Below, one piece after another: positions 11,780 through 59,082 of a stretch of DNA of 64,000 nucleotides. Positions within the stretch are counted from its first letter, which is position 1. The number at the start of each line of letters is the position of its first letter. The notes beneath the pieces are model-generated. The model did no database searches. It had not been told where the DNA came from and saw nothing but the letters and a program-made list of their open reading frames with translations. The translations under genes were made by a program, and so were the position numbers. This DNA is from Azolla caroliniana (taxonomy: Eukaryota; Plantae; Polypodiophyta). The stretch spans positions 19,468,001 to 19,532,000 of the forward strand of contig JBHGNT010000001.1 of the NCBI GenBank assembly GCA_043228905.1. The letters are read 5' to 3'.

Positions 11780-13125
11780 CCTAGATTTTCAACTAGAATC
11801 CAATGCAATGCACTAGATTCCAATTGAAATCCAAGATTTTTTTTTATTTTGTAACTTTTAAAATTTTTCCCATAAAAAAATAAAAAAGGATTTTCAGCTA
11901 AAATACGATCCACTACATGTATTTTAGTTTATACAACTAGAATCCAATGCAATGCATTGGATTAAAGTCAAAAATCCATTTTTCTATTTCCTTTTTTCAA
12001 TGTTATTTATTTATTTATTTATTATATTTTTTTCCCTATAAAAAATAATAATAAATGGCTTTTCAACTAAAATCTAATGCCATTCATCGGATTGTACTTT
12101 ATACAACTACACATCGATGCCGTGCATCAGATTTTAGGTGGCAATCCTTTTTCTTTTCAATTGTTTTTCATTTTTTCGACAAATGAAAGAAAAATATTGG
12201 ACTTTCAACGGAAATCCGATGCAGTGCATCGGATTTCCGTTGAAAATGATGGATTTTTCTTTCATTTTTTTCATTTATCATGTATTTTCAACTGAAATCC
12301 GATGCAGTGCATCCGATTTCCGTTGAAAATGCATTTTTTTTTCATTGTTTTATGAAAGAACTAAAAGAAATTTGGATTTTCAATTGAAATTCGATGCAAT
12401 GCATAAGATTTCAGTTGGAAATCCATTTTTTAAAATATTTTTATTTATTTGTCGAAAAAATGAAAATCCATTTTTTCAATTTTTATTTATTTATTTATGG
12501 GAAAAATACAAAAATATAAAAAAACATTTAAAAAAAAAGAAAATTCGGAAACAAATAAGAGAAAATGGACTTTCAATGGAAATCTGATGTAGTGCATTGG
12601 ATTTCTGTTGAAAATCCTTTTTTTCATTATTTATTTATTTATTTATTTATGGGAAAAATAAAAACATTTCAAAAACATACAAACAAAATTCAAAAATTAC
12701 AAAAATTTGGAAACAAATAAGAAAAAGTGCACTTTCAACTGAAATACGATGCACTGCATCCGATTTCCATTGAAAATCCATTTTTTCAATTTTCATTTAT
12801 TTATTTATGGAAAAATAAAAAAAAATTTAAAAATTGCGAAAAATAAGAAAATTCGGAAACAACTAAGAAAAAGTAGACTTTCAACTGAAATCCATTGCAG
12901 CGCATCAAAATTTGTTTTCAACTAAAATATAATGCAGTGTATCTCATTTTAGTCTATATATCTAGAATTCGATGCAATGCGTAATGTCTCAATTGAAAAT
13001 GCAAGAGTATTTTTTTAATGGAAAATTTTTTTAAATTGAAAGACTTACAACAGGAATTTGATGCATTACATCCAATTCTAGATGTATAGAGTTAAATTCA
13101 ATACAGTGCATCAGATCTAGATGGA
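11780..13125. repeat. Array of ~15 imperfect 43-bp palindromes with AT-rich spacers
   Basis: Best copy 12203-12245 TTTCAACGGAAATCCGATGCA-G-TGCATCGGATTTCCGTTGAAA is a perfect 21-bp-arm palindrome; degenerate copies throughout. Confidence 0.9.
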
Positions 13126-20100: not shown

Positions 20101-20610
20101 AGCTTGCATTCGGTTGATGTCGTCAATAGCACATCTCCTATGCCTATAATTTGGCATGTCCCTTCATTCCCCATCCAGACACACCCGTGCTCACCGGTTG
20201 TGTAGGATGAGAAGCATTTCCGGTCCGGGGACAGGTGGAACGACGCTCCGGAATCGACAACCCACGTTGTCTCGTGACCGGCAAGGTTCAACTCACTCTC
20301 CTCGGTGATGAGCATCAACTCCTCTTCACTTGTCGCGATTGTCGTCGTTCCCTTCCGGTCCGGTCCCCTCCGGTCTTTATTGTTCCGGTCCGGTGACCAC
20401 TTCGAATCGGTACTGTCGGTTTCCATCTCTTTCCGGAAATGCCGACAATTCTTCTAGAAGTGCCCCGACTTCCCACAGTAGAAGCAAGTGGCCCTTCCCC
20501 TTGACTTTGACCGTGTCCCCGACTTTTCCCGGTTCTGGGGACTCCAGTTCCTTTGTCTTTCACGTTCCGATTCGGTAAGGAGCGCCTTGGAGTCGGAGCT
20601 CGTATCCTTG

Positions 20611-21030
20611 TGTTATTCTCTTAGCCGGACAAGGCCTAACACAAGGTGTCACGGAGACACTTCACCAAAGGGTGATTACGGCATAGGATTAAGATTCAAC
20701 GATTACACCGACTTACGTAGGTTACACGATTAGATTGCTTTGGTTAATTACACGCGTAAGATATAACAGCGATTACAGAACGGAAATCAAGACAGAAGTA
20801 TAAACAACATAAGCTCTACTAATTATCCGCTGCTATTACAATGGGGTCCGGGCCTTTAAATAGGTTTCCGGCCCGTAGTACAAAACGGTGCCTCTCGCAC
20901 CTATTCGGGATCCGTCCGGATCTGGAACGGCATACCGTTTCCAGTCCGTCCGTCCACACTATGCTCATTTACAACCATATCTAATTAATTCCTTCACTCC
21001 GTATTTTGGACTCCTTGCCGGCCGGTAACA
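20611..21030 (-). mobile_element. Solo LTR, same family as 1930-2371, inserted in gag of D
   Basis: TGTTA...TAACA; TSD CCTTG; shares GGCCTAACACAAGGTGTC...GACACTTCACCAAAGGGTG with the 1930 copy. Confidence 0.92.
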
Positions 21031-28000: not shown

Positions 28001-29469
28001 GAAAAAAACGTTCCTGCAAGGCGACCTTGAGGAGCATGTATATATGATTCAGCCCCCCGTATATCAGTCCGGAATGAACACGTCGGTTGTTTGCCGACTG
28101 AAGAAGTCTCTTTACGGACTAAAGCAAGTGCCACGTGCCTGGAACGCGAAGATCACGCAGCAATTGCGTCGGCTGGGGTTTGCCACATCCAAGTCAGATT
28201 CTTCACTCTTCATCCAGCAAGGTTGGAATAGACCGGTTAGTATTCTACTTTATGTTGATGATTTAGTCATCATCGGTGCCGACCTAGCAGAAATCGACCC
28301 TGTCAAGTCAGAACTCACCGCATCGTTCAAAATGAAGGATCTTGGGGACCTTCATTACTTCCTCAGGATCGAAGTGATCCGCACCCCAAAAGGCATAATG
28401 ATCAGTCAACACCAATATGTGTTGAGTATGCTCTTCAAATTTGGTCTGACGGAATGCAAGTTCATCTCAACTCCTCTAGATAGGAATGTGAAGCTCCGCC
28501 CCGACTCCGGAACGGCATGTGACCTGAAATGGTTCCGACAGATAGTCGGAAGCCTTATATACCTGACCATCACCGGCCGGATCTCAGCTATCCGGTCGGC
28601 TTGATAAGTCAATTCATGGCAAATTTGACCGTGGAGCACCTTCAATGTGCACACTGAATACTCAAGTATGTTAGCGGAACTAAGGACAGGGGGTTGCTAT
28701 ATCGGGCCAGGCCGGTCAGCTTGTTGGTCATACAGATGCCGATTGGGCCGGAAATGCCGGCGATTGAAGGTCAACTTCCGGATTCACGTTTTCACTTGGG
28801 AGTTTCACGGTCGCCTAGAGTAACAAGAAGAAGCCGACAATCGCATTGTCGAGCACTGAGGCCAAGTATCGAGGACCAGTTGTCGCAATGTGCGAAGCCA
28901 TTTGGCTCAAATGGTTATTGAAGCATCTGCAAGTGGAGGTGTCCAATCCCACGACGATCTACTACGACAACCTCATCAGCATCCGACTGGCGAAGAACCC
29001 CATCTTCCATGTGTTGTTCGTCGGAATAGTAACCGACAGACAAGAGCGCAAGAATACGGAATAGTATAATATTGTAACACATGTAACGGTTCACGCGGGA
29101 AGCGTGAACGGCTAAAAGACCCTGCCCTACGTATATAAAGGGCAGAAAACCTCTGTTAGAAGCAGCATGTAATTTTGAATGTAAGAGGCGTATTGTAATA
29201 GAGTTCTATCTTCTCTGATATCTATGTATAGCTACGGCTAATCTATTGTGTGTCTGTAACACTTGAGAGCATAGGAGTAAGTAACGGTGTGTGCGCTAGC
29301 CCACTGTCAAAGGAGTTCGGTTGTAGTCGTCTCCCTTATACGCTGCTAGGTTACGGGGAATATCCCACTAAGTATTACGCACAGACTCTACCCTTTGTTG
29401 TCATACAGTCACTTGGGGGTCTAGGTCGAAGGACTGACCGTAGACCGTGTCCTTAGTCGGTAACACTTT

Positions 29470-29483
29470 TGGCACGCTTGGTG
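29470..29483 (+). promoter_or_regulatory. Primer binding site of E, tRNA-Arg(UCU)-type
   Basis: TGGCACGCTTGGTG, 4 nt after the LTR; near-complement of the plant tRNA-Arg 3' end as recalled. Confidence 0.75.
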
Positions 29484-32400
29484 ATCTGTGTCTTCTCACA
29501 GACGAACAACGACAAATGGATGTTTAGCCGCAGACGCCCCAGAGAACCAACACGACCAGACCAGCCAATCACAAGGTCCATCACACGCCAGGCAAAGGAA
29601 CGTGCACGGCAAAAGCCTCGCCTTAGCGACCTTAGCACTACATGTCAGTACCACAAAGGTGATTTCCCGCTCTCCAAATACCTCGATGATACGCGGGAAG
29701 CACGCTCACCACACCAGCACTGTGGTCTTTCCCTGCCCATCGTAGCCCCCAGCATGGTCTTTGCCTATCCCCGCTTTAACGGCGAAACCGACGCCGCAAC
29801 CCACATTCGCCTATTCCTCAATGTTTGGAATGCAAACCACATGGCACAGAGCCTTTCTTAGGCAGTAGCGCACCAGTCCAAAATGACGGAGTTTGGGTTA
29901 ACATTGGATGGGTGAGCGGTGTTTTGGCATTCACAGATGGATCTGCCAGCAATCACGACCTTCGACTAGCTGCAGTGCGCCTTTTTGCGGTTCTTCCATC
30001 GGAGGGTTCTACAATGCGAAATCCTTGGACAGTTCTACAAAATTAAGCAGCTGCCGACCGAGATGATCGCGGATTTCAGGTTACGTTTCCAAAATTTACG
30101 GCGGAAACTAGAACGAGGCCCCGCGAAGGACGAGGCTCGCGAGACATTTCTGGCGGCATTACGCCGACCTATACGGACAACGCTCAACAACAATAGCGTG
30201 AAAGGGGAAACAGCCGATATGGTCATCGAACAAGCGTTACAACTCGAGTTGGACGACAAAGAGGAAAGGTTTTCTATGTCCGCATTACGACAAGCGTTAC
30301 CTCAGGATGAGGAACGACATTTTTGTCAAGCAATCTAGTGCACGATTTCCTTGAATTCGGGGCATTCCGCAGTGGAGTGCAACATGCGAATCCACTACCC
30401 AATCTGTCACTAGAAGGCTCACATAGTCGAGCAATGCGAATACAATATGTTGAATAGAGCCGCTCCCACAGTACGCAGCATGGACACACAACATCCCCCA
30501 CGTCGTACTGAACAAAGGAGGCAAGAAGACCGACCACGGTATATGGATCGTAACCCACGTGATGACCGGCACTACCGGAATCACCGGAATCACAACGATT
30601 CCGAGGAAGACAAGCCAGAGGATGAGGACTACCGTGGGCCACCCAGATATGCTAAAGGGGGCCGGCGCTATGAGAATCACCGGCCTCCAAACAAACGTGG
30701 TAGCTTCAATGGACCTCGTGGAAAGCAGCGGCAATATCGGGACCACTGGCAATATGATGAAAGCTCGAACGATGACCAGCACCAAGAACCACGCCGGGAC
30801 CAACAGCAATCACCGCGTACGCTCCAACAAACGAAGTTGGACTGTGAGGAGCAAGTCGCACCGGGGGGTCGGCACACACCACCAGGGGCCGAGAAGGGTG
30901 AATCTAGCATCCATTGTTTTGTTTGTCAACAGCCCGGACATTATGCCACACAATGCCCAATACGCAAGGGCAAAGGGCCCACCGTCAATACGATTACGGC
31001 AGAAGTGCAGTAAGTCACGACACGTTAGCAAACAAAAACGGTTGATTGGGCCGCGCAAGATGAGTTACGACGAATAGCCCAGGCATGGGTTGAAAAAGCA
31101 AACGCGACAAATACGGAATGAATGCGGAAGGAATCCGCAAAAACGATGGAGCTAGTGGAGGACGAAGGACTGGCCCCGGACCCCATTTGGCAAGCACTAG
31201 CAGGATGCGAGATAATGTTAACCATGGAGAAGCTACTGCAACTAGTCCCATGCTTCCGCCAGACCGTGGAAGAGCGGGTGACGAGCATACCCGGGGTGAG
31301 CATCGCTACGAATTTCACTGACATTAGCGACGGACCGTCTGTAGTGGATCACCACAACCCAGCTATTACGTTGATATTACACGGTCAGGAAATCCCAAGA
31401 TGCGTAATCGATGGCGGCTCGGGCGTTAATGTAATTAGCGCGAAAACATGCGAGTGGTTAGGAATTTCAGAATGGGAGGCTTGCCCGTTTTGGCTCCGTA
31501 TGGCAGATACCCGCTCAGTACGACCATTGGGGTTGATACGCAAGGTAGGCATTATCGTTGGAGGACATCGCTTCGACATCTCGGCGGTAGTCCTCACCCT
31601 GGACGCCCCAGGGGCGTACCCTGTGCTGCTAGGCAGACCGTGGCTTCGTGCAGTGAATATCAACCAGAGCTGGCAACACAAGTGTATCAGTTTTCGACAC
31701 GGACGCACCAAGGTTCGCGTACCAATGGAGGAAAGGACAACACAATACAAGGGTATAACACCATTATACGCAGAAGATATAAATATGTTGGCTGGGGTGG
31801 ATGATACAGAATTAGAGGCATACCTAGACGAGCACCCTCGGATTATTCCGTTGTTCGAAATCGACTTTATCGCAACCGCAGCAGAATATGCCACGGCCAC
31901 TACTCTCCACGACGAGGCATACGAACCAAACCCAGAGTCAATATTAGAACTAAGCAGAGCATCTAATAAGCAGAACACGGGCAGCGTTCGAGAGGGAAAT
32001 GGAAATTTCACAACGAGTCACCACCTCAGCCCTGGAAGAAGTAAACGTGGGTACGACGTCAGAACCCCGTTTCCTCTCCATCGCAAAAGAATTAAGGGCG
32101 GACCAGAGAGACGCGATGATCGTCATGATGTTCGAGCTAAAGACGGCGTCGGCGACATTTCAACGGACAATCACAGAGATCTTTGGGGAATATATTCCGG
32201 CATTCATGCAAGTTTTTTTAGACGATTTTGCAGTATATGGGAAAACAACCGACCATTTTACGCATCTGCAACTATGCCTGGAACGTTGCCGCACCGCAAG
32301 CTTAAGATTGAATCCCGTGAAATGTGCCTTTGGCATTACCAGTGGGGCTCTCCTAGGCCATATAGTCAGCAAGGAAGGGATAGCGGTCTATCTAAACAAA

Positions 32401-34424
32401 ATCTCCGCGATTACTCAAGCTAAAACTCCGACAAACGCGAAATCACTCAGCCGGTTTTTAGGACAAATACGATGGCATTATCGGATGATACGATACTTGG
32501 CGGACTTCGCCACGCCGTTACATGGACTGCAATGGAAGACAAGGCCTATGATGCGTTCAAGATAATGCTCACGCAGGCACCCGTCGTACAGCCACTAGTT
32601 TGGGCGAAGCCATTCCACGTGTTCGTAGATGCCTCGGACATAGCAATAGGAAGTGTGCTAATGCAGCTCACCGAACCGAATTGGCACCGGCCAATGTACT
32701 ACGCTAGTCGCAAATTATCAACAACAGAGCGTAACTATTCCACAACGGAACGTGAATTTCCTCCCTAGCAGATAATGCCGGAATTTATTGATGATATAGA
32801 TCATCCCCAATGCACTAACGGGGAAATTGGCACGATGGATGTTGCTACTCCAAGAATTCGATTTTGTAATTCAGCACCGCCCAAGTACGCAACACGCAGT
32901 GGCAGATTTTTTGAGTAGACTCGATAATGGAGAAACGGCGCAGAAGGACGACGACGACTTTCCGGACGCAGACATTCTGCGGGTAGTAGCACTAGCTAGA
33001 AGAACGGAAACGGCCTTTCCAGACCGATGGCTCATAGAAATTACATACTTTTTGACTATGGGACTGCCTCCACCACAATTACGCACGGACGAGAAGAAAC
33101 GATTAGCCATCCAGAGCCGTAACTTCTTCCTGGTAGAAGGAATCTTATATCACAAAGGTAGTGATGGCATTTGGCGACGCAATGTACGCCAGGATGAGAA
33201 AGAAGCGGTCTTACGGGAGGCTCATTGCAGCACGGCAGGCGGACACTACGCGGGCGATGTTACGGCCGGGAAAATATGGCAAGCAGGCCTATGGTGGCCG
33301 ACTACACAGAAAGTGCGATTTGTGTCAACGGATGGGCCAGCCCACGGAGGGCGCAAGAATGTCACACCAGCCCGTATTACCGTTAGATCCCTTCCAAAAG
33401 TGGGGATTGGATTTTGTGGGCCCCTTCACACCGGCGGCGGCCCGAACGGGCAATAAATACATATTGGTAGCCACGGATTATTGCACCAAGTGGGTAGAAG
33501 CAAAGGCACTACGAGAGAATACGGCGGCCATCACAACAAGATTCCTTTACGAACACATCTGGTGTCGGTTCGGTTGTCCGATTGAGTTTATCAGTGATCA
33601 GGGGAGCCACTTTCTCAATACGGTCATTCAGGAACTGACACATCATTACGCCGTAGTCCACAAGAAAAGTACGCCATATTATCCACAGGCAAATGGGTTG
33701 GCGGAATCCACCAACAAGACGTTGCAGACCATATTAAAGAAAATCATCAATGAAAATAGAACGGACTGGGATACCAATTTACATAGTGCGTTATGGGCGT
33801 ACAAAACCAGCTACAAAACAAGCATACAATCAACACCGTTTCGACTAGAGTTTGGGCTGGAGGTCGTTATGCCGGTAGAGTTTCAGATACCCAGTTTACG
33901 GATTCAGGTACGGGACCGACTATCAGAAGCAAAGTCGGAGGAAGTATGACTCCTACCAGCTACTCGAACTCGGCGAAACGCGCATACACAACATGGTTGT
34001 GTTGGAGCAGGAACAACGACGGCGTAAAGCGTTTGTGGATCGACATCAGAACGCATGGGAAAAGGATTTCGCTGTCCGTAGAGTGGTACTGGTTTTCCAA
34101 ACCCGCATGGGCCATATGCCAGGAAAGTTACGATTCTGGTGGACAGGCCTGTACTGGATAATAGGAGTGGAACAAGGCACGTTCCAACTGGGCACGCTGG
34201 CCGGGGAAGTCTTACGACAAAAGGTGAATGGGTTTCGCCTTAAACCTTATTTGGGACCTACGCCACCTAACCCATTCCCCGCCGGACAGGACAAAGCCGA
34301 AGAACCCGCGGCGTAAGAGGATGGCCCTACTTGTATCATAGTGTAAAAATTGGCTTGTATGTAACCATTACGGAAAAAAAAAAAAAAAGGAGAGAAGATA
34401 GCGACATTATTAAAAAAGGATTGA

Positions 34425-37400
34425 ATGCATGCACAGACTTCTAGACCAAGAACACGCGGCACCACGATGGCTCACCGCCCAATAAACCCTAGGCCACAAA
34501 AAGAAGGAAATCGAAGGTCTTCTGCACAATACAGAAATCCACCTCCTAACTCTCAGCGCTCTCATCGCTCCCCTCCCCCACCTTCTCCTCCATCCTATCA
34601 TAGAGCTCCAAGCCCACCGCAACCAACAATCTTCCCCCCACGAGCCTACTCTGACTATGTCGATATTTATCTCTACCGCCTTACGTCGATGGCTCGTGGA
34701 GAAACGCCTGGATGGGTACATCAGGGTCGCAAAGGCACCTCCACACCCGGATGCATTGGACATTGCCAGAAAGCTCAACATTGACACTGTCACCAACTCA
34801 TCCATCCGGAAAAAGTTGGACATGTCATCACTAGGGGAAAGGCATTTCGAAATCCCTCCTGCGGAGTCACTGTAGAGATATTTCGGTCCATATTCGTCCT
34901 CCGCCAAGGCATATAGAACGAAGGAGATCCTGGATCCCTTTTTCCGTGAAGTGGCCAAATTCCTAATAGAGGTCGGATGCATACATGTAAACGCATATGG
35001 GATGCCCAAGCAGAAGGCAGGTATCATTATTGATACCTTTGAAGGGCGTACGGTCGATTGGGGGGTCATCACGGGGCCGACATTAAGGGAAGGCCTGCAC
35101 GTGTATCAAGGAGGCAAGAAGCTCAGGCCTATCATACAACAGTACCTGATGGTACTATTCCCACCCCAAAGCCTACCGGCACCGCAGCCCAGCAGGCCCA
35201 CGCCGTTGCCTCGATCCGTGAAGCGCAGGTTAACGGAGTTAGCCACCACAGAGTGGGAGGATGAACCCCAACCCACCCAGCCGGACACACGGACAACACC
35301 GGAAGAGCAGGCGGCGCGCTCCAAGGAAGTGGCACCAAAGCCAAACACCGAACCACAACAGGAAAGCCCCAAGCCGAAACGGCGGAGGCTGGACAGGAAA
35401 GATGGGCGAGGATTAGTTAAAGACGTACTCGTGGCAACGAAGACAACGGCCGTAGGCAACAACTCCGTAGCTACGAAGCCCAACACCACCTTCGAAATAA
35501 TCCGGGAGCCACGGCCGATCATTACGGCCCAGTCACAACGAGGGAAAGCCGTATTGACAGCGGAAAGTGAGGTCTTGGCATATCCAGATATCCCGAACAC
35601 GGCCCATGAGTTCAGTACACTATTACAGTTCGGAACCTCTTTTGAGCTCATGCAATTCTTGGCAACGCAACAGATAAAGGTCTCACAACGAATGGTCGAG
35701 GAGCAAGCGCAACGCCAGATGATCGAGCGAGCCTTAACACAAACGACGGAGAGCGACGATGAGGACCAGTTAGCCAGAGTCAGCAGACAGAGGAACGTCG
35801 GTATACGGCGAATGGGGATGGAACTACCCCCATTAAATGCGGCCCTAGTCGAACTTCATAGGGAACTGGCAAAGGTCAGCATGGGCGCCAAGGAGATGGC
35901 CATTAAAAATAAGAATGTCTGGAAGAAGGTTAAACTAACCCAAGCCGAGCTGCAAAAAGCCAACGAACGCATCGCGGAGTTGGAAAATAACGTGACTACG
36001 GTGCAACAGGCAGCTACACCACAAAACAACGCCATCGAAGCCTTGAAGGAAGAGATTGAGGCTCAGACCGCCATTGCCTCAAAAGCAAAACGGGCCATAC
36101 AACTAGCGAAATCAGAAATTGACCACCTCCGCGCTAAACTTCACCAGTCCTCAGACAGGGAAAAGGACATCCGGGCCAATGGCCGAAAGGCAGTAAAAAC
36201 CCTTGAAGAGAAACTCATTGCGGAGACAGCACAACACACCCGGACAAAAGAAGAAACCGCCCAATTACAGGAGGAAGCGAAAAAATCGGAGGCGGCAATC
36301 GTGGGATTCCGGGCCTTATTGGAGAAAAAGAAAACATTGTTCAACGAGCAGCTGGTGGGCGAACAGTTGAAGAGAAACTCGTTGCGGAGACAACACAACA
36401 CACCCGGACAAAAGAAGAAACCACCCAATTACAGGAGGAAGCGAAAAAATCGGAGGCGGCAATCGCGGGATTCCGGGCCTTATTGGAGAAAAAGAAAACA
36501 TGGTTCAACGAGCAGCTGGTGGGCGAACAGGAAAGAAGGCATCAGCTCGAAATCCGCCTGAACAATGAAATGGGAAAACTAGAAGAACTACATGCAAAGG
36601 AATCCCAGTTGTGGGCAGGTATGAAGAGCACGTATGAAGAAGTGACGGTAGTTAGTTAGCAAGAAATTGCAAACCTCAAGAAGTCTGTGGAAGAAGCACG
36701 CAACCGTTGTCAGGCCATCACAGACAACGTGTGTATCCTTCTACAAACGAATTGGGAGAGGTTTACGGCGCTAGACAAAGGATGGATGGTGTGGGCGGCA
36801 CAAGCGGCGGAATTGCACGCGTATCGAGCGGACTGGGAGAACTGGAGAAAAGACGGCCCAGGCTTCTATAAACTCAATGAGGAAAGCATTGTGGCAGTAC
36901 GCGAGGACCTAGCGCAGGACTATCACATGCTAGCGGATCAACATTCCGAAGAACTCACGCAGCTATTAGATGATTTTGGTGAAAGTCAAGACGATCTGTT
37001 TCACCAGATCACGCAAGCCGGTAGCACGCAAACAAACGAGGAATCCATCGCAACACCAATTCCGGATACTGCCGAAGAAGAGGAACCTCAGGCCAAGTCA
37101 CCAAAAATTACAACTACGGTGAACAGCGCGGAACGGCGAGCGGAGTCCCCCACAACACCGGACAGCGAAACCACTGCCCAAGAGGAACCCCATCTACCGG
37201 AGCATACGCTATCAACCAACCGCACGGAGAACATTGCGGACCAAGAGGAACCGCAACCCCACTCCCCAGAGCATACAACGACGACCGACATCACGGAGGA
37301 AGTGACGGACGAAACGGAGCCGCGACCGACCGCAAGCCCGCCGACAGTTGAGCCAACCCCCCCTAGCCCAAGAAAAGCCCACAGAACCCAGACCGCCCAC

Positions 37401-37542
37401 ACAGGACGATCGCAACACTATGAGAAGCCCTCCCGACCAAACAGGGGAACCACACCACGATGCACCTACGGGTCCTACGTCGTCCCCAGACACAGACACC
37501 ATAGCAGAGCCAAACATCAGGGCCATTTTGGAAGAAGATTAA
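34425..37542 (+). pseudogene. Extra ORF of E downstream of integrase (Pro-rich N-terminus, globular domain, long coiled coil, acidic Pro/Thr tail); frameshifted
   Basis: Consecutive plus-strand ORFs at 34425, 34657, 34951-36561, 36687-37607 and 37348-37542; heptad-rich segments. Confidence 0.7.
36203..36530. repeat. 164-bp tandem duplication in the extra ORF
   Basis: TTGAAGAGAAACTC...GGCGAACAG starts at 36203 and 36367. Confidence 0.9.
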
Positions 37543-37571
37543 AGGGATGGGTCCGACGTGCCATGGCACTA

Positions 37572-37587
37572 TCCCACTGGCATGCCA
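37572..37587 (-). promoter_or_regulatory. Inverted PBS-like site at the PPT position of E
   Basis: Plus strand TCCCACTGGCATGCCA ends 2 nt before the 3' LTR; minus strand reads TGGCATGCCAGTGGGA. Confidence 0.65.
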
Positions 37588-39333
37588 AGTGTTTTCCGCC
37601 GGAATAGTAACCGATAGACAAGAGCACAGGAATACGGAATAGTATAATATTGTAACGCATGTAACGGTTCACGCGGGAAGCGTGAACGGCTAAAAGGCCC
37701 TCCGTATATAAAGGGCAGAAAACCTTTGTTAGAAGCGGCGTGTAATTTTGAATTTAAGAGGCGTATCATACTGTGTGTAGCTACAGCTAATCTACTGTGT
37801 GTCTGTAACACTTGAGAGCGTAGAAGTAAGTAACGGTGTGTGCGCTAGCCAACTGTCAAAGGAGTTCGGTTGTAGCCGTCTCCCTTATACGCTGCTAGGT
37901 TACGAGGAATATCCCACTAAGTATTACGTACAGACTTTACCCTTCCTTGTCATACAATCACTTGGAGGTCTAGGTCGAAGGATTGACCGTAGATCGTGTT
38001 CCTAGTCGGTAACACCATGCCCGGACAAAGCACATTGAGGTGTATTACCATTTTGTCCGAGAGCAAGTCCTCTCTAGTGAAGTTGAACTAGTGTATGTTC
38101 TGATGGATCGGCAAATTGCCGACATCTTCACCAAACCTCTCGGCCTGGACAAGTTGCGGCACTTTTCAGGTCTACTTGGTCTCCAACACCTCGATATGCC
38201 GAATTTGAGGGAGATAGGTGAAGTCGAAAACAATGAGGAGAGAGATGATGATGTCCGAAAAACCGAATCGGATACCGAACTCAATTTCGATTCGACTGAA
38301 GGAGTCAGAGCGTTCAGGTCGGCTAAAGAGGGCGAGAATGGATGGACATGTGCAGATAGAACGGACAAGTGGAGACTTTTCACACGTAGGGGGCGCGACA
38401 TCAAAGGGAAGCCAAAACCAACCGAAAATGGGGAAGGTAAAGCCGACAAGTCCAAGAAAACCAAGACACAAACGTGGTCTGATGTCGTGAAGGGTTTGAA
38501 GATCGGAAATGAATCAAAGACAGCCGATTCGGCCAAGAGTCGGAGCGAATCGGAAGCATCTGATTCAATCGAAATGTTCGATTCAAATAGACCGAATCGA
38601 TTGGCCACACAGTCAAAAGGGCAGCAAAAGTCGACTATGACACAGAGGAGCCGGTGGGTCGAGAAACACCAGGCGCTAGGACCACAACAGCGAGGCAGCT
38701 GACAATGGACAAGGGAGCAGACAAACCGACCAAGAAGGTCGAAGTGAGCATAATCGAACGGGTCATGCGAAGAGGAACCAGACCGAGCGAGGAGCGTGAG
38801 CCAAGCGGGAAGACGCCAGGAGGAGCCGGAGGAAAGGACCGGCGAACACACACAACAATCCGACCTCAAGTTGAGCTTGAGGGGGAGTGTTGAGCGGGCA
38901 AGCTCAACCGGATGCAGATCGGTTGAAAAAGACAAAGCCAGAGCGGAGAACTGGATCGGTATCTGGATAGATCAAAGTCGAACCAGAGAACCAGATCGTA
39001 CTCCGAAATAGTGAGAACCGGTAGGTCATTAGAGGCCTACGGTCTGAGCCTAGTACGAAGACATATTCCTTGGAGTTAGTGTCAATCGCTCGTATGAGGA
39101 TTAAAGTACATGTCAATACTTCTGTTAGTCTTTTTAAGGACTTGTATAAAAAGTGTTTTGTAGGATATTTGTATGTACATAGTGTTATTTTTTTAATTGA
39201 GTTTACGTTGTTCTGCTCTCTTTCTCTCCCATGTATTCCAGCTTTCCATTAAACCTATGTTCTGTGTTATGTTGTACCTCTTTCACTCCCGTGTATCCGG
39301 TTTTTTCTTAGCTTTCGCACAATATCTTTTACA

Positions 39334-41849
39334 GCCCACCAAATATCTAAACACATGCTTAACTACATTCCAATGCGATCGATCGGGATTGTGCATAAAT
39401 CTGTTGACGACTCCTACGGCATGAGCAATGTCAAGCCGTGTTGCAGTTATGCCGATTGCTTCGTCCGACTGGAGTTTCGGTGTTTGCTTGGCCTATTCTT
39501 GTTGCATATTAGCGATATTTCATTGATTAGCCTTTTCCACCCATTCCATGGCCACCTTCCGGACCGCTTCTTATGCCCCCCATTCTATGGTTTTCCCCTT
39601 CAACCGGGTCGTGACTTGTTGTACGTCCATGACTTCGGCTATCACCATATTTACCACCAACTATTTTTCCTTAACCTTGACTGGGCACTAGCTACTATAG
39701 TGCCCTTCTTGTTGGCAATAATAGTAATATAATTTCCAGCCCCCGCTCGATTTGCCTTTATCTCCGCCTGTCAAGTGTATATCGGGAGCCATCCGATTGA
39801 TTTCTTCTGTTCTTCATTGCTCTAGCTGTGCTACTGCTTTACTTGTGTCTGGCCCATGTCGGTACTCTTGTTCCATGTCTCAGCGCTCATTTCTGCAATT
39901 GTAATTACCACGTCGGTGGTTTTGATTGCGGCACTGGTTATGGTACCACTACTTGTCCTGATACCTCTGTTCTACTCCTCTCATCCAGTTTTATTCTGGA
40001 GAGTAATCTCTATCGTATCAGTTCCATGGGTACTCTTCCCTTCTCCGGACGTCGTCGTACCGGAATCTGTCTTCCGGTCCGTATCGGTCCCCTCCTTGGA
40101 TATGAACTTCTTCTAGTCGTCGTTCTTCGCGGGGCTCTATTTGTCTTACCGGTGTTGCTTGCCTATTCAGCAAGTTATATTCGCATCGCTCGATGGTATG
40201 TGCCCGTGAGTGGCACGGTGCACATTGCATTCGCATTGTACATTCTAAACTTGAATGTCCCGGATTGAGGCATGTTGTACATTGTATTGCTTACCGGAAC
40301 TAGAGGTCCTCCTCCTTGGGCAGTTTTCGTTGTAAGGCTCCCATCACCATGTGATTACCATTTTGGACCCGATCCATGTCGAGCACCCGGTCAATTACTT
40401 GATCGATTGTACTTGTCCAGAAATCCAAAACCGTCAAAGTGGTCCAAAGTGCTTCTCGTAGAGCCGCCAGAAATATTTCTTTGTACTTCTTCTTCTGGAG
40501 GTGCCCGCATCAATTTGTTGTGAAGGTTCTAAAACCTGATAATAAACTGTGGTATTGTTTCATGCGCCTCTAGGTAGGTGGCATAAAACCGTCCGACTAG
40601 TTCACTTTGCACCACCTGCCGATGGAACAACCGCAGGTCTTGGAATGTAGCAAAACTCCCTGGGTTATGCTATGCATACCATCTTGTGGCTTGTCCTTCT
40701 AGCAATAACCCAAACTCAGCAATTCTTGATCTCTCTGCTTTTGGTTCTGAAAGTCGTTGGGAGACGTGGTTGGCCTCTTACGTCGTCAAGGATGCGCAAC
40801 GTCTTCTTTTGCGTCCAACTCCTCCTAGTCCTTAGGATAAGCATATGGCATTGTATCTTCTTCTTCGGCACGTACTGGTTCCGATATGATTTCTTGTGCC
40901 GGTGGCGTTGGCACTGGATTGGCTTCCTCTATCGGTGGTTGTAGCGGGATAACTTCTTCCACCTCGGTGTTGGAACTAGAATTACTTGTTCTGTCGGGGG
41001 TGTCAGTGTCATAGTGTTCGACTCTAGTGTTGGTGTTTGCTCGAACTCATCTTCCTCCAGCTCGTTCGGAGTATTGTGACTGGATCTATAATTGGAATGG
41101 GTGCTTCGCTCATCGCTCATGTCGTTGTCCAATCCCAACTCAACGTCGTTCGAATGGCATTGGTTCCATCTATGAATTGTTTCTTCGGCCAGCCTCCACA
41201 ACTCTCTAGGAAATGACCGATCCTGCCGGATTTCCTCTGCTGCCTGCTGGTATGCCTCCTGCCTCCGCAAGTGTTCGGCTAATCTCCTCGTTCGCTCGGT
41301 GACCAATTCTTTCGTCTGTCTAGACACATCCATCCTCCGGTGTTCCTGCTCCATGCAACAATCATGGTCGCCAAAATTGTGTTTATCCTAGGCTGGACTT
41401 AGCCGCAAACACAAGGTATCCATTTCCGGAATACTTATCCAAAGGGGTGGTCAAAGATATGGATTATTATTCCCCACTCATACACTTATAACTATCTAGT
41501 TCCTGTCCAGAATACATACACCATATCCGGCAATCAATTCCACGCATAAGATAACAAGATATAGCACAGACGGCAAATACACAAGATAGACAAAAAGATA
41601 GACAGTCAATCACTTAACCTACATTACTTCCGCACTAATACAATCAATCTGAATCCTTTATATAGGCATCCGGTAAGGTCACAAAATGGTACTTCGTCCG
41701 GCTACCCGATTACAAAACAGTGCAGATCTGGATCCGTACATCCATCCGGACCCGTCATTTCCTTAATACAAATTATCTATAATATCTATTATTCTCTAGC
41801 CTCTGGTTCACACCTCCGCCTCCGAATCATACTCTTTCTTCGGCCAACA
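39334..41849 (-). mobile_element. 5' half of gypsy element G (LTR ~41378-41849, PBS, gag, start of protease region), relative of E and of the solo LTRs
   Basis: PBS TGGCGACCA (tRNA-Arg(UCG)-like) at ~41373-41365; gag peptide CAPCHSRAHTIERCEYNLLNR matches E; LTR shares AACACAAGGT..CCAAAGGG with the solo LTRs. Confidence 0.75.
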
Positions 41850-42170
41850 GAGAGCCAAATCACATGAAGGCCAAGCAAACGAGAGGGCAGTCGAAGCCGA
41901 CACCGAAACGAAGGAGCAAACAAGTCGAGGGGCGCCAATAGCGAGGGAGCTGAGAAGGGCCTGTTGAGCAGACAACCCGATCATAGGGGTCGAGGAGCGC
42001 GAAACCAGATGAGTCGAGGGGCATCGGACCAGAGGGGTCGTGGGACACAGAACTGGGGGCTGGACATGGAGCTTGTGCGAGCGTGTTCTCTCTAGTGAAG
42101 TGGAACTGCAATATGTTCCATCTAATCAACAATTGGTCGGCATCTTCACCAAACCCCTTGGCTTGGACCA
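41850..42170 (+). mobile_element. Scrambled fragments of the A/F copia family (3' extension followed by RNase H end)
   Basis: ERVLSSEVELQYVP..GIFTKPLGLD at 42075-42168; preceding sequence resembles 38660-38790. Confidence 0.65.
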
Positions 42171-42804
42171 AGAATATCACGTACAGTCCATGCAAGATGA
42201 CAAGGAAATTTGCATGAGCTACAAGTTGGGATGTTGGTTGTAACATTAGCAGGGGATAACGAGTTTGATCATCCATTTTGGGTTGCTAAGATTCTTTAGA
42301 TAATGAAGAATGAAAAAAGCAATCAACTTAAGTCAATTGTGGTCCATTAGTATCATACATCACACATCTTCCCCTTGGCTTGGACCAAGAATATCACGTA
42401 CAGTCCATGCAAGATGACAAGGAAATTTGCATGAGCTACAAGTTGGGATGTTGGTTGTAACATTAGCGGGGGATAATGAGTTTGATCATCCATTTTGGGT
42501 TGTTAAGATTCTTGAGATAATGAAGAATGAAAAAAGCAATCAACTTAAGTCAATTGTGGTCCATTAGTATCATACATCACACATATTCCCCTTGGCTTGG
42601 ACCAAGAATATCACGTACAGTCCATGCAAGATGACAAGGAAATTTGCATGAGCTACAAGTTGGGATGTTGGTTGTAACATTAGCGGGGGATAACGAGTTT
42701 GATCATCCATTTTGGGTTGCTAAGATTCTTGAGATAATGAAGAATGAAAAAAGCAATCAACTTAAGTCAATTGTGGTCCATTAGTATCATACATCACACA
42801 TCTT
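42154..42804. repeat. Three tandem copies of a 217-bp unit
   Basis: CCCCTTGGCTTGGACC starts at 42154, 42371 and 42588; copies are nearly identical. Confidence 0.95.
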
Positions 42805-43477
42805 CCCCTGATATATTTACTGGAAAGTATTCTTTAGAGATGGTCAAGGACGTTAAAAGCACAAGCAAAAATTGAAGAAGAAAAAATGTACCTAGCATAT
42901 CAACTCTCACACTTGATTTTGTTGATATACTTGTGTATGACTTCTCTTTAACAAAAACAGGCCATCTGAGACAAACTACAATCAAAATATTAAAAGAGAA
43001 GCTCCCTAATGTAGCGCAAGAAACAACACAAAGACAAACAAGAAGCATGTCTCATAACCACATTTCAGTTGGCTAGCAATTGGATGAAGACGATGAATTA
43101 GTCGCCAATAAGGAAGAGGACGAAACTTCACAATGTGCTACAAGTTCATCAGATGGATCTGAAAACGATGGAATAGACTTGGAAAGCGACATTTTTCACT
43201 CATAAACTGTAAATATTGTATTCTAGTTTAAATTGTTAAATACCGACTATATATAGATTTAGATGTTAGTCATTTTGTATATTATTTTGTAAGTTTGGCT
43301 TGCCGCCACCAATTTTCAACATATTAAAAATCAATATATTTATGGAGCATTTTTAAATCTCCTTTATGCATACACATGCCCTTCTTGTGAATCAACCTAT
43401 TTTTGGTCTTTTTTTGTCCTCTTTTACGGGGCATTCTCAAATTGCAACATATTACCTATTTCAAATGTCCTCATGTT
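42171..43477 (+). mobile_element. DNA transposon D3, 3' end (D2 subfamily)
   Basis: HPFWVAKI..FTGKYSLEM..VYDFSLTKTGHLRQTTI peptide; degenerate TIR ACATATTACCTATTTCAAATGTCCTCATGTT ending at 43477. Confidence 0.78.
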
Positions 43478-54100: not shown

Positions 54101-57100
54101 TACATTTATATTGGAAGTCTTTATAAACAGATTGCCATTGACTTACCAAATCCATCATAGGTTGATGTACCTCGCCCCAATTCATCAATAATTATCAATG
54201 ATCTATCACTTGATGCTTTCAGAATTGCTGCAGTCTCAAGCATTTCAGCCATAAAAGTTGATATCCCCCGCAGCTGTATAAATAAAGTAAAATGTCCAGG
54301 ATAATTTGATCACCATCTTTAGTACACATTCTACGAAGCAAAATGCATGTTCAAAAGTACAATAATAAATTTTGGTCAAGCATGCACTAGCCACACCCAA
54401 AAAACTGTGAGATATTCAATGTCATGCCAAAACGGAAAACACCAAATGAACAAAAAACATTATGTCACAAACATTATTTACCTGGCAATCCCCTGCACCA
54501 ACCCTTGCAAAAATCGAATCCCGCACACTTATAGTTGCATATTCACATGGGACATAGCATCCTACTTGGGCCATGAGAACATTAACTCCAACCTAGTAAA
54601 AGAGATAATCTCAACAATCACGACAATTGCTAGCAAACTAAAACGTCACTGCAATTTTCAGATTTACATAACCAATAAGTAGATTAAAACCTGGCGTATA
54701 AAAGTAGATTTTCCACCCATGTTAGGGCCTGTTATGATTTGAAACCAGCTTTTGCCTCGAACCTTGATAGAAAAAAGCTAATCATTTAGGATAATCCAAA
54801 TCATAACAAAGAGAATGCTGGTATGCCTAATTAAGAAGTACCAGAAGACAATCATTTGGAATGAAGCTAACAGTGTCTTGGGCTTCTACACATGGATGTC
54901 TGCTTTCTGTCAGTATGATATCCCCTTCATCCTGGATACATATTAAAACTGAGTCAATTATAGTGCAAATGAGCATTTAATGTAGCTAGTTTGAAGAGAT
55001 TTCCTAGTTAACTCGGTATTGACTGACATAAATTTTTCCTTGTTTCAATTCCTTTTTGACATCTCTGATGGACTGGCCAAGGTAGCTAGTAAATAATAAA
55101 AAAAGATACATGATACGTGGAAATTGCTTGAAGCAAAAGTCCAGTCAGTACATGATGACCTGTAGAAGTTACTTAAAAGACCAAGATACACTGCAATAAA
55201 AAGATGAGTACATGGTGATCTGTAGAAATTAATAAAAAGATCAAGTTCATGACAAATCACAATTTTCATGTATGGTTTTTTTTTACTAGGAGACACTGGA
55301 TATATCAGGTCAAACATTCTAGAATGACTTACAAATTTCTTCTATGTTACAAGGGAAGGCTTCTCCTCAAATCAGCCTCTCTACTACCAAGATATGCCTT
55401 ATAAGATGCAGAGAAAATGTGATGCAAATATGGCAAGATAAACGAGGTCTCACTTTTCGCATACCCAACTTTTACAACTCCTCAATGTGACCCATTGATA
55501 AAAACAACCAGCATTGACCTAAACTTGATAATATAGAAACCTACTACATTATTACACATGACCTACCCAATATATGCATGAAAATTGAGATTCAAATATA
55601 AATGCTAACAATCCACATATGTAGCTGAAAAGGCATTCTTGGAAGAAGGATAACCAGCATTGATCTAATCTTGATAATATAAAAACCTATAGCATTACTT
55701 ACTACTCACAAGTACCTGCTCACTACATGAATATGGAGGTTTGAATATAAATGTTAACAATCCATGTAAAGGAAAAGGCATCATTTGAAATCCTACCGAA
55801 GAAGTGATGAGTGGCCTGACATACGGTGCTGGACTGCTAGAAGAGAGATCAGCAAAACTTGAGAGGACATCTAATTCAGCCATCAGATTTCCAACCCCTT
55901 CAAAGACCTGAACAGAGGGGAAAAAACAAATTTATACAACAAAAATATTTCAAAAAACAATATATCGATAAATTAACAGTTTGAGTATAGAAACTCTACG
56001 CATCTGCCAGATAATAACTTTTTTACCTCCAAAAATGTTGAAGTGACCTCCACCACCTTTGCCACAAGTTCACGTTGGGTGGCTGCATAGTCTTCTGTAA
56101 GTTTCATATACTGCTCACTTGCCCTTTTTAGTTTGGCATTAGTAAATTTTATTCCATCTTTGCGTGTCTCAAGAGAGATATAGTTTGCATTGAGTTGTCT
56201 CCTAACTTTAGGTTCTTCTTTCTTAGTGATCCGGAAAACGTGGCCCCATTGAGAAGTCTTATCAATCTTGAGTACTTTATCAATGGCTAAATCCAGCTCA
56301 ACAGCTGCTGTCTGATGTATCTTTTTTATTCTTTCTTCTACGTCATCCCTCTCAGTCTTTATGTTTTGCAAGTTAGAATCATATCCGGCTGAAATAATAT
56401 ATTCACCCATTTGTATTTGTTCAAGATCAACAGCTGCCTCAACAAGACCTTCGAACTTTCCAAGATGATCTGCACTTGTCCAAGTTCTTAAGGAATTCAA
56501 GAAGCGTTCCTTAATCAAGGTATCGCATTCTCCTTCATAATGCTCAAGTATGTCCCTAATGAAAGGAAGCCTAACAGCAGCCTGCATTGCAGAAATGAAA
56601 TATTACAGTATCCAACTGTATTAAAGAAACTCACAACCCAATCCAAAAAAAGGTAATGATGGTAAAAGTTTGAAACTCATATTTTTGACACTAAGAGCTA
56701 TTCACTGCGTATAGCCATTTATTGAATACTTCCTCCTCCCCATCCTATGGATACCTGATAAAGTTTCACAATATCTTGTAGGGAGGCTTTTCTCTTGTCG
56801 ACTTTCCTTATCAGCCTATCAACATCTGGAATTCTTTTCAAATGTTGGCGCATATCTTGCCGAAGAGCTGCATCCTCCACAAAAGCTTGGACAAGATCGA
56901 GTCGATGATTTATCTCGGTGACATCAAGCAATGGCTGTTTGAGCCACTTATTCAACAGTCTCTTGCCCATGCCAGCAGTACATGTCCTGTTCATGAGCCC
57001 AAATAAACTAAAATTTTTATTTCCATCAGCTTTACTCTCAAGAACATTCAGTGCCCGCAGGGCCGCTGCGTCGAGTCTCATGAAAGTGTTTACACTATAA

Positions 57101-59082
57101 GGCTCTAATACAAACTTTCCGTAATTTGAATCATCCGCTAATAATTCTGTGTAAGACAATATAGCACCGAGTGCCCCAGCGGCGATTTCAGATGCAAAAA
57201 CTTGGTCTTTGAGTTGTTCAACCGAACCCTTCACTAATCGGCCCATGTCTTGATCGACATCTTTTATTTTAAATATCATTTTCTTTCTCTTGGTCAAGAG
57301 AACATTGCACCTTGAAAATACATCATTGAGCCTCTCAGTATCTGTAACACTACCACTTTCCTGAGGGGCAACACATTCTTTACAACCAAGTGCAATAATA
57401 GCCGATTCCAGATTCGTATAATGATCATCATCCAAGAACTCCGTTAATCCCATGCTTCTTTTGGTAAGATTCACAAAAGCTAAGCCTACTAATCTTTCCC
57501 TGTCACAAATAGAAACCTGAACCGCAATAGTAGCAGGGGCATCGTGCATATCATTGCTTGCAAACAGAATATCTTCAAAACTCCCTAACTGTCCTGGTGT
57601 TCCCGTCTTTGTCACTTGCCAATTGGACCCACCTCCTTCATATAGTTCTATAATGTGATCGGTTCTCGTAAGTAATAAATCCCTTATAATTGATTCAAAC
57701 ATGCTTTTGCTTATAGAAATACTTGAAAGAGAATCTGAATCATTGTTGCCAAGCTGACGCAATGCTGTCATGGTACGATAATATGTTTTCGCAAGAAAAG
57801 TCGCGTTATCACCATGTGCAGTGTAATAGTCCTAAAGACCAACAAAACCTTCAAATGTTATGAATGAATATATAATGCAAGCATTGCTACAATGATCAGA
57901 TTACAAGATCTGTATTAAAATTATTGACATTTCAATACCAGACAAAACTGAACAAAATAGTAGATACAAAACTGGCGTGCAAGTCGCAACTTGTTTACAA
58001 CATGCAGTGAGCTTATAAAACCTTTGAAATCACATTAAAGCAGTAAATCACAATTTTCTTTACTTCAGTATATGTATGGATTTTAGGCTCTTCGCAAAAG
58101 AAAGATAAGAGAGAATGCCACAATCTTTTAAACATTTCAGAAATTTTTAAGTGTAGTTCTACCCGGTTTATTCCAGAAGAATGCTCTAAGAAATTAATTA
58201 GTTGTAGATCTACCCTGTCAATTCCCAAGTAATGTTCTTTTAAGAACATATTGGATCAGAGATGGTAATACTTATTTTCTAAATGTGCCATATTTAGGCT
58301 CAAAGATATGATTCAGAAAAATGAGCAAATAAATAAATATTCATGGATTTGGATCAATTTTAAATGAATTGGAGCTGATTTTTTTCACCCATTAGGCAAT
58401 GAACCAGTGCATAAGTTTTCAAGTATCGGGCCAGTACATAAATTTTTCATCCATTGGATTACTATGAACAATTCGATAGAAAGATCAGGAGACATTCAAT
58501 AAGAGAAAGATAAACTAAAAATCATTCACCTTCCGGTCAAAGAATCGAACAATCTGTTCATCCTGCATTTTTAACAAGAAAAATAGTATGAGCTATGAAA
58601 AATGCAGGAAAAGGCGCCCAAAAATGCATATTGAAAGTTATGTATGCATGCATGCATGTATACACATAAATATATATACTGAAACAACAAATTCAAGATC
58701 TTTTTACCTCTGTAAGCTTACGGAAAAAACTAATGAATCCTCTTACTTGTTTAGCATCTGCAAATAAGCAAAAAAATCATGCATTTTGCAGATATCAGAC
58801 TAGCAAGAAAGACGAACTAGCTCTACACAACTATCTAGATATAAATGCATGCAATATATAAATTATTATGAAAACGAGAATTATTTATGTTTTATGCACA
58901 TACATCGTGTATACATATACAAGCATATAATGTAACCCTAAAACTTATATATATAGTGCTGTATTTAGAATACATACATACATGTGTGTGTGTGTGTGTG
59001 TGTACACAATACCTAGCTTGAGGTCAGGGAGCTTGGAAGATTCGTCGATTTGATCAGTGGGTTCGTCTGCTGGAGGCGCCAT
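44979..59082 (-). CDS. MSH2: DNA mismatch repair protein MSH2 (MutS homolog 2), 13 exons, 948 aa
   Basis: Hand-spliced GT-AG exons give 2847 nt in one frame: [37 protein letters not shown], Walker [22 protein letters not shown], Walker [37 protein letters not shown]-stop. Confidence 0.97.
45316..45468 (-). CDS. MSH2: MSH2 exon 12
   Basis: [38 protein letters not shown]. Confidence 0.92.
45849..45992. repeat. Three tandem 48-bp units
   Basis: CATAGGATATGATCTTAC...CTACAGTTC at 45849, 45897 and 45945. Confidence 0.85.
46030..46900 (-). mobile_element. Highly decayed Ty3/gypsy integrase remnant in MSH2 intron 11
   Basis: [15 protein letters not shown]-like peptide on the minus strand. Confidence 0.5.
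46960..48112 (-). mobile_element. Patchwork of copia fragments (RT start and IN C-terminus on minus; gag zinc knuckle on plus at ~47430-47700)
   Basis: [30 protein letters not shown]; plus-strand [12 protein letters not shown]; 46960-47290 is paralogous to 49780-50090. Confidence 0.75.
48126..50145 (-). mobile_element. 3' half of a copia element (RT, RNase H, PPT, 3' LTR ~48126-48350) in MSH2 intron 11, co-oriented with MSH2
   Basis: [41 protein letters not shown]; PPT GGTGGGAGGT then TGTTGGG at 48350. Confidence 0.88.
50153..52270 (+). mobile_element. Decayed gypsy-like LTR/leader and gag remnant
   Basis: TGTTACG start; gag-like peptide from 51499; degenerate knuckle [14 protein letters not shown] at ~52158-52200. 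Confidence 0.45.
52401..52790 (-). mobile_element. LINE (RTE-like) ORF2 C-terminal fragment
   Basis: [22 protein letters not shown] matches the post-RT motif of RTE/L2-type LINEs. Confidence 0.7.
53393..53589 (-). CDS. MSH2: MSH2 exon 11
   Basis: [27 protein letters not shown]. Confidence 0.95.
54147..54273 (-). CDS. MSH2: MSH2 exon 10 (Walker B)
   Basis: [14 protein letters not shown]...[16 protein letters not shown]. Confidence 0.95.
54482..54592 (-). CDS. MSH2: MSH2 exon 9
   Basis: [16 protein letters not shown]...[11 protein letters not shown]. Confidence 0.95.
54691..54762 (-). CDS. MSH2: MSH2 exon 8 (Walker A)
   Basis: [24 protein letters not shown]. Confidence 0.95.
54842..54931 (-). 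CDS. MSH2: MSH2 exon 7
   Basis: [27 protein letters not shown]. Confidence 0.92.
55797..55907 (-). CDS. MSH2: MSH2 exon 6
   Basis: [21 protein letters not shown]...RPLITSS. Confidence 0.92.
56027..56581 (-). CDS. MSH2: MSH2 exon 5
   Basis: AAVRLPFI...TSTFLE, 555 nt. Confidence 0.95.
56755..57831 (-). CDS. MSH2: MSH2 exon 4
   Basis: DYYTAHGDN...DIVKLYQ, 1077 nt. Confidence 0.95.
58530..58562 (-). CDS. MSH2: MSH2 exon 3
   Basis: [15 protein letters not shown]. Confidence 0.9.
58708..58757 (-). CDS. MSH2: MSH2 exon 2
   Basis: [21 protein letters not shown]. Confidence 0.9.

Follow-up and report, generated by a model that had tools for sequence, protein, structure and literature searches.

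We analysed a 64-kb window of the Azolla caroliniana genome (contig JBHGNT010000001.1, positions 19,468,001 to 19,532,000), the whole stretch of DNA considered here. It contains element E, a long terminal repeat (LTR) retrotransposon with an unusual junction before its 3' LTR. Element E is a dead non-chromovirus Ty3/gypsy copy that has no polypurine tract (PPT). The 41 bases 37547-37587, two nucleotides short of the 3' LTR, are instead a sense-orientation copy of positions 49-76 of tRNA-Arg(UCU), less one base and plus a hairpin insert. All coordinates are positions in the window, and L numbers denote metagenome loci.

Element E and its 3' junction

Element E lies on the forward strand, where it was inserted into a copia RNase H region. 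It is flanked by the target site duplication (TSD) CCATG at 29007-29011 and 38015-38019. The 5' LTR (29012-29465, 454 nt) and the 3' LTR (37590-38014, 425 nt) both begin with TG and end with CA, and they are 7.5% apart (32 substitutions in 425 aligned positions). An earlier note on this DNA called the termini and TSD intact, and so they are; the interior, however, is broken. The same note placed a tRNA-Arg-type primer binding site (PBS) after the 5' LTR, which is correct. A CTTT spacer and the PBS for tRNA-Arg(UCU) occupy 29466-29483. The PBS starts at 29470, reads TGGCACGCTTGGTG and matches the tRNA-Arg(TCT) of locus L010 over 14 nt, the complementarity including two G-U wobbles.

Remains of gag (Retrotrans_gag, zinc knuckle), protease, reverse transcriptase (RT), RNase H and integrase follow in Ty3/gypsy order at 29730-34316, decayed by stops, frameshifts and deletions in RT and RNase H. 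The D, E and D motifs of RNase H are kept in close relatives, and a related polyprotein has its best PDB matches in Ty3 Gag-Pol and RT. The end of RNase H passes straight into the integrase zinc finger (32800-33456). We found no second RNase H family match that would indicate an archaeal-type RNase H, a test resting partly on relatives as the window copy has deletions here, and no Pfam chromodomain match in the window open reading frames (ORFs), the L025 integrase or P0191. A broken extra forward ORF spans 34425-37542 and ends EPNIRAILEED*, with its stop codon at 37540-37542. It has 141 homologues, is about 920 aa long in P0168 and matches no Pfam family above threshold. The homologues terminate in ILDILESE* or IL(D/G)ILEE(D/E)*, and the acidic C-terminus IL(D/G)ILEE is conserved and common to many families that carry the tRNA-like site. 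In E, the extra ORF also holds a 164-nt tandem duplication (36198-36525) that shifts the frame.

Neither coding sequence nor a purine tract occurs in the 47 nt that separate the extra-ORF stop from the 3' LTR. These 47 nt hold, in order, a copy of the tRNA T-arm (positions 49-58) at 37547-37556, with 8 of 10 bases identical and the remaining two wobble-compatible on the minus strand; a 14-nt insert at 37557-37570 with a 4-bp stem GTGC/GCAC, placed between A58 and G59; a copy of positions 59-76 minus one C at 37571-37587, which ends in CCA, matches at 14 of 17 bases and on the minus strand is an inverted PBS; and a 2-nt spacer at 37588-37589. Positions 37572-37587 read TCCCACTGGCATGCCA, then AG, then the LTR start TGTT. 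The letters quoted in the earlier note and the 2-nt distance from CCA to LTR are thus accurate. The note's tRNA match covered the 3' block, which stands, but the actual match is longer and reaches the T-arm across the insert. A 19-base pattern of the site plus TG, with up to three mismatches, matched once in the 64 kb, at this site, and in none of 100 shuffles. ARAGORN found no tRNA in the window and Rfam gave no match at 37400-37700.

Purines make up 0.53 of the 15 nt that precede the 3' LTR, in agreement with the note's remark that a purine tract is missing here; two copia 3' LTRs in the window give 0.80 and a third gives 0.53. A purine run at 37530-37551 was considered as a PPT and rejected, as it consists mostly of the last extra-ORF codons, stops about 38 nt short of the LTR and has no counterpart in most relatives. 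Coding constraint through an ORF that crosses the site (36660-37607) was likewise rejected, the homologues stopping at codons that match 37540-37542.

Copies and relatives of the site

Other copies of the E family were examined in Logan contigs from four sequencing runs (three samples, two organism labels), with 1053-1851 contigs per run aligned at a likeness of at least 80%; any contig whose junction differs strongly would escape alignment across the site. In all four runs contigs cover the site without a break, and one listed piece extends more than 31 letters to either side of the LTR junction. No PPT was seen in these contigs, and there were no insertions or deletions inside the site among the 40 of 160 differences listed. 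At the three mismatches of the window's 3' block, the majority of depth reads G at 37571 (75-85%), A at 37578 (93-99.7%, T in the window) and G at 37582 (82-84%). These mismatches are decay of the window copy, and the site is family-wide. The earlier note had also read the missing base as a lost G; compared with the tRNA-Arg(TCT) of L010, the reference for the site alignment, it is a C (65/66). What differs between the E-family majority and the tRNA is G49>A, U55>C and G67>A, a small number of changes that all give wobble pairs (G-U/G-T) on the minus strand. The copies mostly share one 5' PBS, with 29478 T>C in 7-24% of depth.

Relatives were collected in one metagenome scan whose pattern allowed 0-20 nt in the T-loop. 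It returned at least 128 matches in at least 121 stretches, and the counts below refer to the matches listed. The 128 comprise 89 uninterrupted matches, mostly tRNA-Arg(TCT) genes, 35 element sites in 34 loci, and 4 unrelated ones (L036, L054, L079 and L128, which have other gaps and no CCA-LTR context); the uninterrupted and the unrelated matches were left out of the counts. The motif is therefore not unique to one copy, since it occurs in the E-family contigs and at a minimum of 35 metagenome sites, and the tRNA-Arg(TCT) genes on metagenome contigs supply the matching tRNA 3' end. Clustering of LTR sequences at 70% (32 sites; three with less than 40 nt of LTR omitted) places the sites, at least 35 in at least 34 loci, in 10 clusters, E's own not among them.

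Several features that the pattern did not prescribe recur at the listed sites. The end is CCA in 32/35 and TCA in 3/35, TG follows the 2-nt spacer in 33/35, and the second spacer base is G, also in 33/35. All 35 lack the same base and carry an insert of 13 or 14 nt. The purine share of the last 15 nt is 0.53-0.60 in the window and in 35/35 relatives, so no PPT abuts the 3' LTR, and in 31/35 the purine runs within the last 60 nt reach a length of 3-4 at most. Four further LTR starts were found by LTR similarity rather than by the pattern; three are internal-LTR junctions that carry the site, and the fourth has an unrelated flank. In L025 the order is integrase (80% identical to that of E), extra ORF, site, LTR and PBS, and the extra ORF of E has tblastn matches in 15/34 site loci. 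The gene order and these matches place the site at the 3' end of an element.

Between E and one representative of each of the 10 clusters, identity is 0.83 in the site (a figure partly built in by the pattern), 0.48 in the 40 nt upstream and 0.51 in the LTR. In an alignment of 27 rows (26 sites plus the window) the insert hairpin covaries: three of its four pairs are altered on both sides, in 18 cells against 6.0 in shuffled alignments, a count that related rows inflate. Covariation is missing in the T-stem, whose outer pairs are broken in 12/27 and 5/27 rows, and U55 is C in 18/35 listed sites. By these usual comparative signs the site is conserved and functional. That it might be left over from some past error in copying and now be neutral, while priming occurs elsewhere, has some appeal in that the lineage does capture tRNA cDNA (L010, L038, L055; see below). 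A non-coding 41-mer that stays 0.83 identical between flanks of about 0.5, with compensatory changes, in 11 LTR clusters speaks so strongly against it that we regard this explanation as very improbable and largely refuted already.

The families that carry the site are probably from plants, and the element types point to a land plant as the host of E. Their known host breadth is limited because all 34 loci come from one assembly series. Viral contigs contained no integrase relatives, and their 4 pattern matches were all unrelated to LTR elements on inspection; the 4 matches in prokaryote genomes were two tRNA genes and two chance-like hits. G-U pairs in the insert hairpin were not used as an indicator of the strand that folds, as the 5 rows with such pairs are low-coverage contigs by name; the C>T change behind them would fit methylation decay.

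Some relatives have further features. L085 (with sites 2523 nt apart), L045, L033, L058 and L099 represent a family that is arranged in tandem and apparently non-autonomous; its spacers are 2 nt long at both ends, and its PBS is only 10 nt while the 3' site is complete. In the largest cluster (L010, L025, L065) the site is preceded, at a distance of 10-40 nt, by T-rich tracts that are absent in E; they recall the T/U-box upstream of PPTs (10.1101/2022.12.06.519325). An ORF for a phenolic acid decarboxylase (PF05870, E 1e-48) at L065:719-1321 shares its contig with a site-bearing element.

Priming of the plus strand

At the 5' end, the PBSs of E and of the L025 and L085 clusters match the tRNA over no more than 10-14 nt, and anti-T-arm sequence is absent from them. 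In three loci copied tRNA sequence is preserved at the PBS. The whole 76-nt mature tRNA-Arg(UCU) cDNA, CCA included, is present at L010:1190-1265 and L038:2079-2154, and a 35-nt portion, again with CCA, at L055:175-236; all three are joined to downstream internal sequence. We interpret these fossils as the mark of over-extended plus-strand strong-stop DNA. Because the whole tRNA was copied, the RT of the site-bearing lineage can read past A58. The five bases that follow both whole-tRNA fossils are TAACA, although the joins sit in different genes, and may reflect a tRNA leader or microhomology. Self-priming of the minus strand, which the earlier note had entertained, is disfavoured by this mature tRNA cDNA with CCA at the PBS.

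The sense RNA of the 3' site is identical to the tRNA, so that only the minus strand offers the tRNA a pairing partner. On that strand the 3' OH of the tRNA would lie 2 nt from the LTR and point into it, as expected of a primer for the plus strand. Because the 5' PBSs contain no anti-T-arm, the T-arm block could pair with the tRNA but not with the element RNA, and this argues against simple RNA circularisation. Circularisation through pairing of the site with the 5' PBS was another proposal of the note; such pairing might also help strand transfer, and the plus strand would then start from an unrecognised primer. An 11-nt stretch of the two sequences is indeed complementary in E and in the clusters of L025 and L085, but pairing there leaves the T-arm block, the hairpin and positions 59-63 without a partner, and no other PPT abuts the LTR. 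We consider it improbable as an explanation of the site.

Indirect evidence on this point comes from element G, which the note had suggested for comparison and which we take to be the element running from 41849 to about 39230 on the minus strand (39230-41849). It belongs to E's lineage and has a 5' LTR (41849-41380) and a broken gag, but it is truncated, has no 3' end and is joined within gag-protease to copia sequence. Its PBS, TGGCGACCA from 41373, corresponds to a different tRNA end. The LTR start of L084 resembles that of G (49 nt, 82%, E 6e-7), and L084 carries the usual Arg(UCU) 3' site. The comparison, between different copies and over 49 nt only, hints that 5' PBS and 3' site are uncoupled, which again does not favour a role in mutual pairing.

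Priming of the plus strand by a tRNA, the central proposal of the note, is the best-supported reading. We think it fairly probable, judging from sequence comparison, that a host tRNA anneals at the site on minus-strand DNA and serves as the primer. It is favoured over the alternatives by the unpartnered T-arm block, the T-stem without covariation and the differences that preserve wobble pairing. With RNA parameters, the window site is also the best tRNA partner of 12,792 stretches (-43.2 kcal/mol, next -39.6). Tracing the steps, tRNA-Arg would prime the minus strand at the 5' PBS, as the tRNA cDNA fossils support, and RNase H would clear the RNA after strand transfer. A second tRNA-Arg would pair through positions 59-76, one base bulged, and 49-58, with the DNA looping out the hairpin at A58/G59. 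The loop would thus lie beside m1A58, a base that is unable to pair in Watson-Crick fashion and sets the limit of the standard 18-nt PBS (PMC13191261). RT would extend from the CCA, copying 2 nt and then the LTR; RNase H would remove the tRNA and integrase would trim the 2 nt. For the fuller picture we lean only slightly to the positive side: a high-copy plant Ty3/gypsy clade without a PPT, in which full-length host tRNA starts both cDNA strands, the plus strand at a two-part landing site on minus-strand DNA, and in which the plus-strand tRNA may be fixed as Arg-UCU and the minus-strand tRNA changeable.

Several observations weigh against priming by a host tRNA. The site also folds as a hairpin in sense RNA (-15 to -19 kcal/mol), and covariation is blind to strand; the fold of the window copy is no better than that of shuffles (z 0.61). 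The conserved missing base weakens the tRNA duplex, and at family level the wobble counts upstream of the pattern are weak (position 49: 5/10 mismatched). A mirror fossil, that is sense tRNA, CCA, 2 nt and LTR start, was not found among the 89 uninterrupted matches listed. As to the scan, the pattern prescribed the T-arm block together with most of the 3' block, which partly fixes their identity in advance, it was blind to relatives with a PPT or another tRNA, and the 34 loci of one assembly series share ancestry, so that shuffle counts overstate their independence.

Some of these points suit a different primer. The element's own RNA over the site might resist RNase H, be cut after the CCA and act as a non-purine plus-strand primer that mimics a tRNA. 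The position and the 2-nt spacer are those of a PPT, a second tRNA is not required, and the conserved sense-strand fold combines a GAC/GUC helix with the covarying stem and uses the C and T that flank the insert. The RNase H catalytic motifs kept in close relatives are compatible with such a cut, and Ty3 PPT cleavage follows local geometry and varies between RTs (PMC5371799). Such an RNA, however, pairs with its own cDNA whatever its sequence, and tRNA identity as far as position 51 across families would be unneeded; the T-stem without covariation and the frequent C at position 55 do not suit it either. We judge this explanation unlikely, though the most serious of the alternatives. The note had also raised the possibility that the element is copied in either direction, the site being a PBS on an antisense transcript. 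PBS geometry is present at both ends, and the tRNA match at the 3' site is the more elaborate of the two, but the tRNA cDNA fossils sit at the 5' PBS, as copying of sense RNA predicts; we hold this to be highly unlikely. Priming of the plus strand by a host tRNA remains our preferred reading. It and the leading alternative, a primer from the element's own RNA, predict different primer sequences and can be tested directly.

The rest of the window holds further features. Two solo LTRs are related (74% alike), one at 1929-2369 in a gypsy RT and the other at 20610-21030 in a copia gag; a 5-bp TSD flanks each. Palindromic 51-nt units are arrayed in A/T-rich spacers at 11780-13090, possibly a miniature inverted-repeat transposable element or a Helitron-type repeat. 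Three tandem 217-nt units, 98-99% identical, begin at a copia RNase H end (42154-42809). Long exons at 55973-57831 on the minus strand resemble those of a mismatch-repair gene of MutS/MSH2 type.

Comparison with known elements

Retroviruses and LTR retrotransposons are taken, as a general rule, to prime the plus strand from a PPT (PMC12789967, PMC5371799), and in Ty3 and retroviruses this strand starts at an RNase H-resistant purine tract (PMC5371799, PMC12789967). A full-text literature search found no description of a tRNA site that replaces the PPT; subscription journals and Repbase entries lay outside the search, and a prior mention is possible. The PBS string did not occur in five supplementary files of PMC6317226. 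If the proposed mechanism is true, a natural and abundant clade with a tRNA site would be an exception to the PPT rule and would reveal the way in which RT and RNase H deal with a tRNA primer on DNA, and 3' tRNA fragments could interfere with the elements at two steps. Families that bear the site would probably be mis-bounded or under-rated by annotation tools that score PPTs.

Element E resembles yeast Ty3, other Ty3/gypsy elements and retroviruses in domain order, LTRs and a tRNA-primed minus strand; Ty3 and retroviruses use a PPT, whereas E has the sense copy of a tRNA 3' arm in its place. Like the plant non-chromoviruses Athila, Tat/Ogre/Retand, Phygy and Selgy, E has no chromodomain (PMC6317226). 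TatIII, Ogre and Retand share the tRNA-Arg PBS, but Tat/Ogre/Retand have an archaeal-type RNase H and none was found in E (PMC6317226). Phygy and Selgy have a 4-bp TSD, a PBS for Trp (Phygy) or Ala (Selgy) and no extra ORF, in contrast to the 5-bp TSD, Arg PBS and extra ORF of E (PMC6317226). Athila also lacks the archaeal-type RNase H and has a 5-bp TSD and an extra ORF 3' of pol (PMC6317226). Its PBS, however, is for Asp/Asn (PMC6317226), and Brassicaceae Athila have a conserved PPT junction (10.64898/2026.03.20.713144). E is Athila-like in layout and is set apart by the Arg PBS and the missing PPT, a placement by features and not by a tree.

The two-part site itself has a parallel in the bipartite or extended PBS of Ty1 and Ty3 and the HIV-1 primer activation signal, where two template segments likewise serve the acceptor end and the T-arm (PMC5371799, PMC13191261). 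The Ty1 segments are split by a small loop, as in E, where the site lies on the opposite strand (PMC5371799). The Ty1, Ty3 and HIV-1 sites are complementary to the tRNA on genomic RNA and serve minus-strand initiation, whereas the E site adjoins U3 and has its complementarity to the tRNA on the minus strand. Helenus terminal-repeat retrotransposons in miniature also contain tRNA-derived sequence (PMC10886601), but they are non-coding, their tRNA-like part lies inside the LTR as a promoter, and both PBS and PPT are kept; in E it lies outside the LTR, has a CCA end and replaces the PPT (PMC10886601). Tf1, Tcn1 and TAR depart from canonical priming as well (PMC6317226, 10.1101/2022.12.06.519325). 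They exchange the minus-strand tRNA for self-priming, and those of fission yeast keep the PPT (PMC6317226, 10.1101/2022.12.06.519325); a tRNA route to the plus strand would be new.
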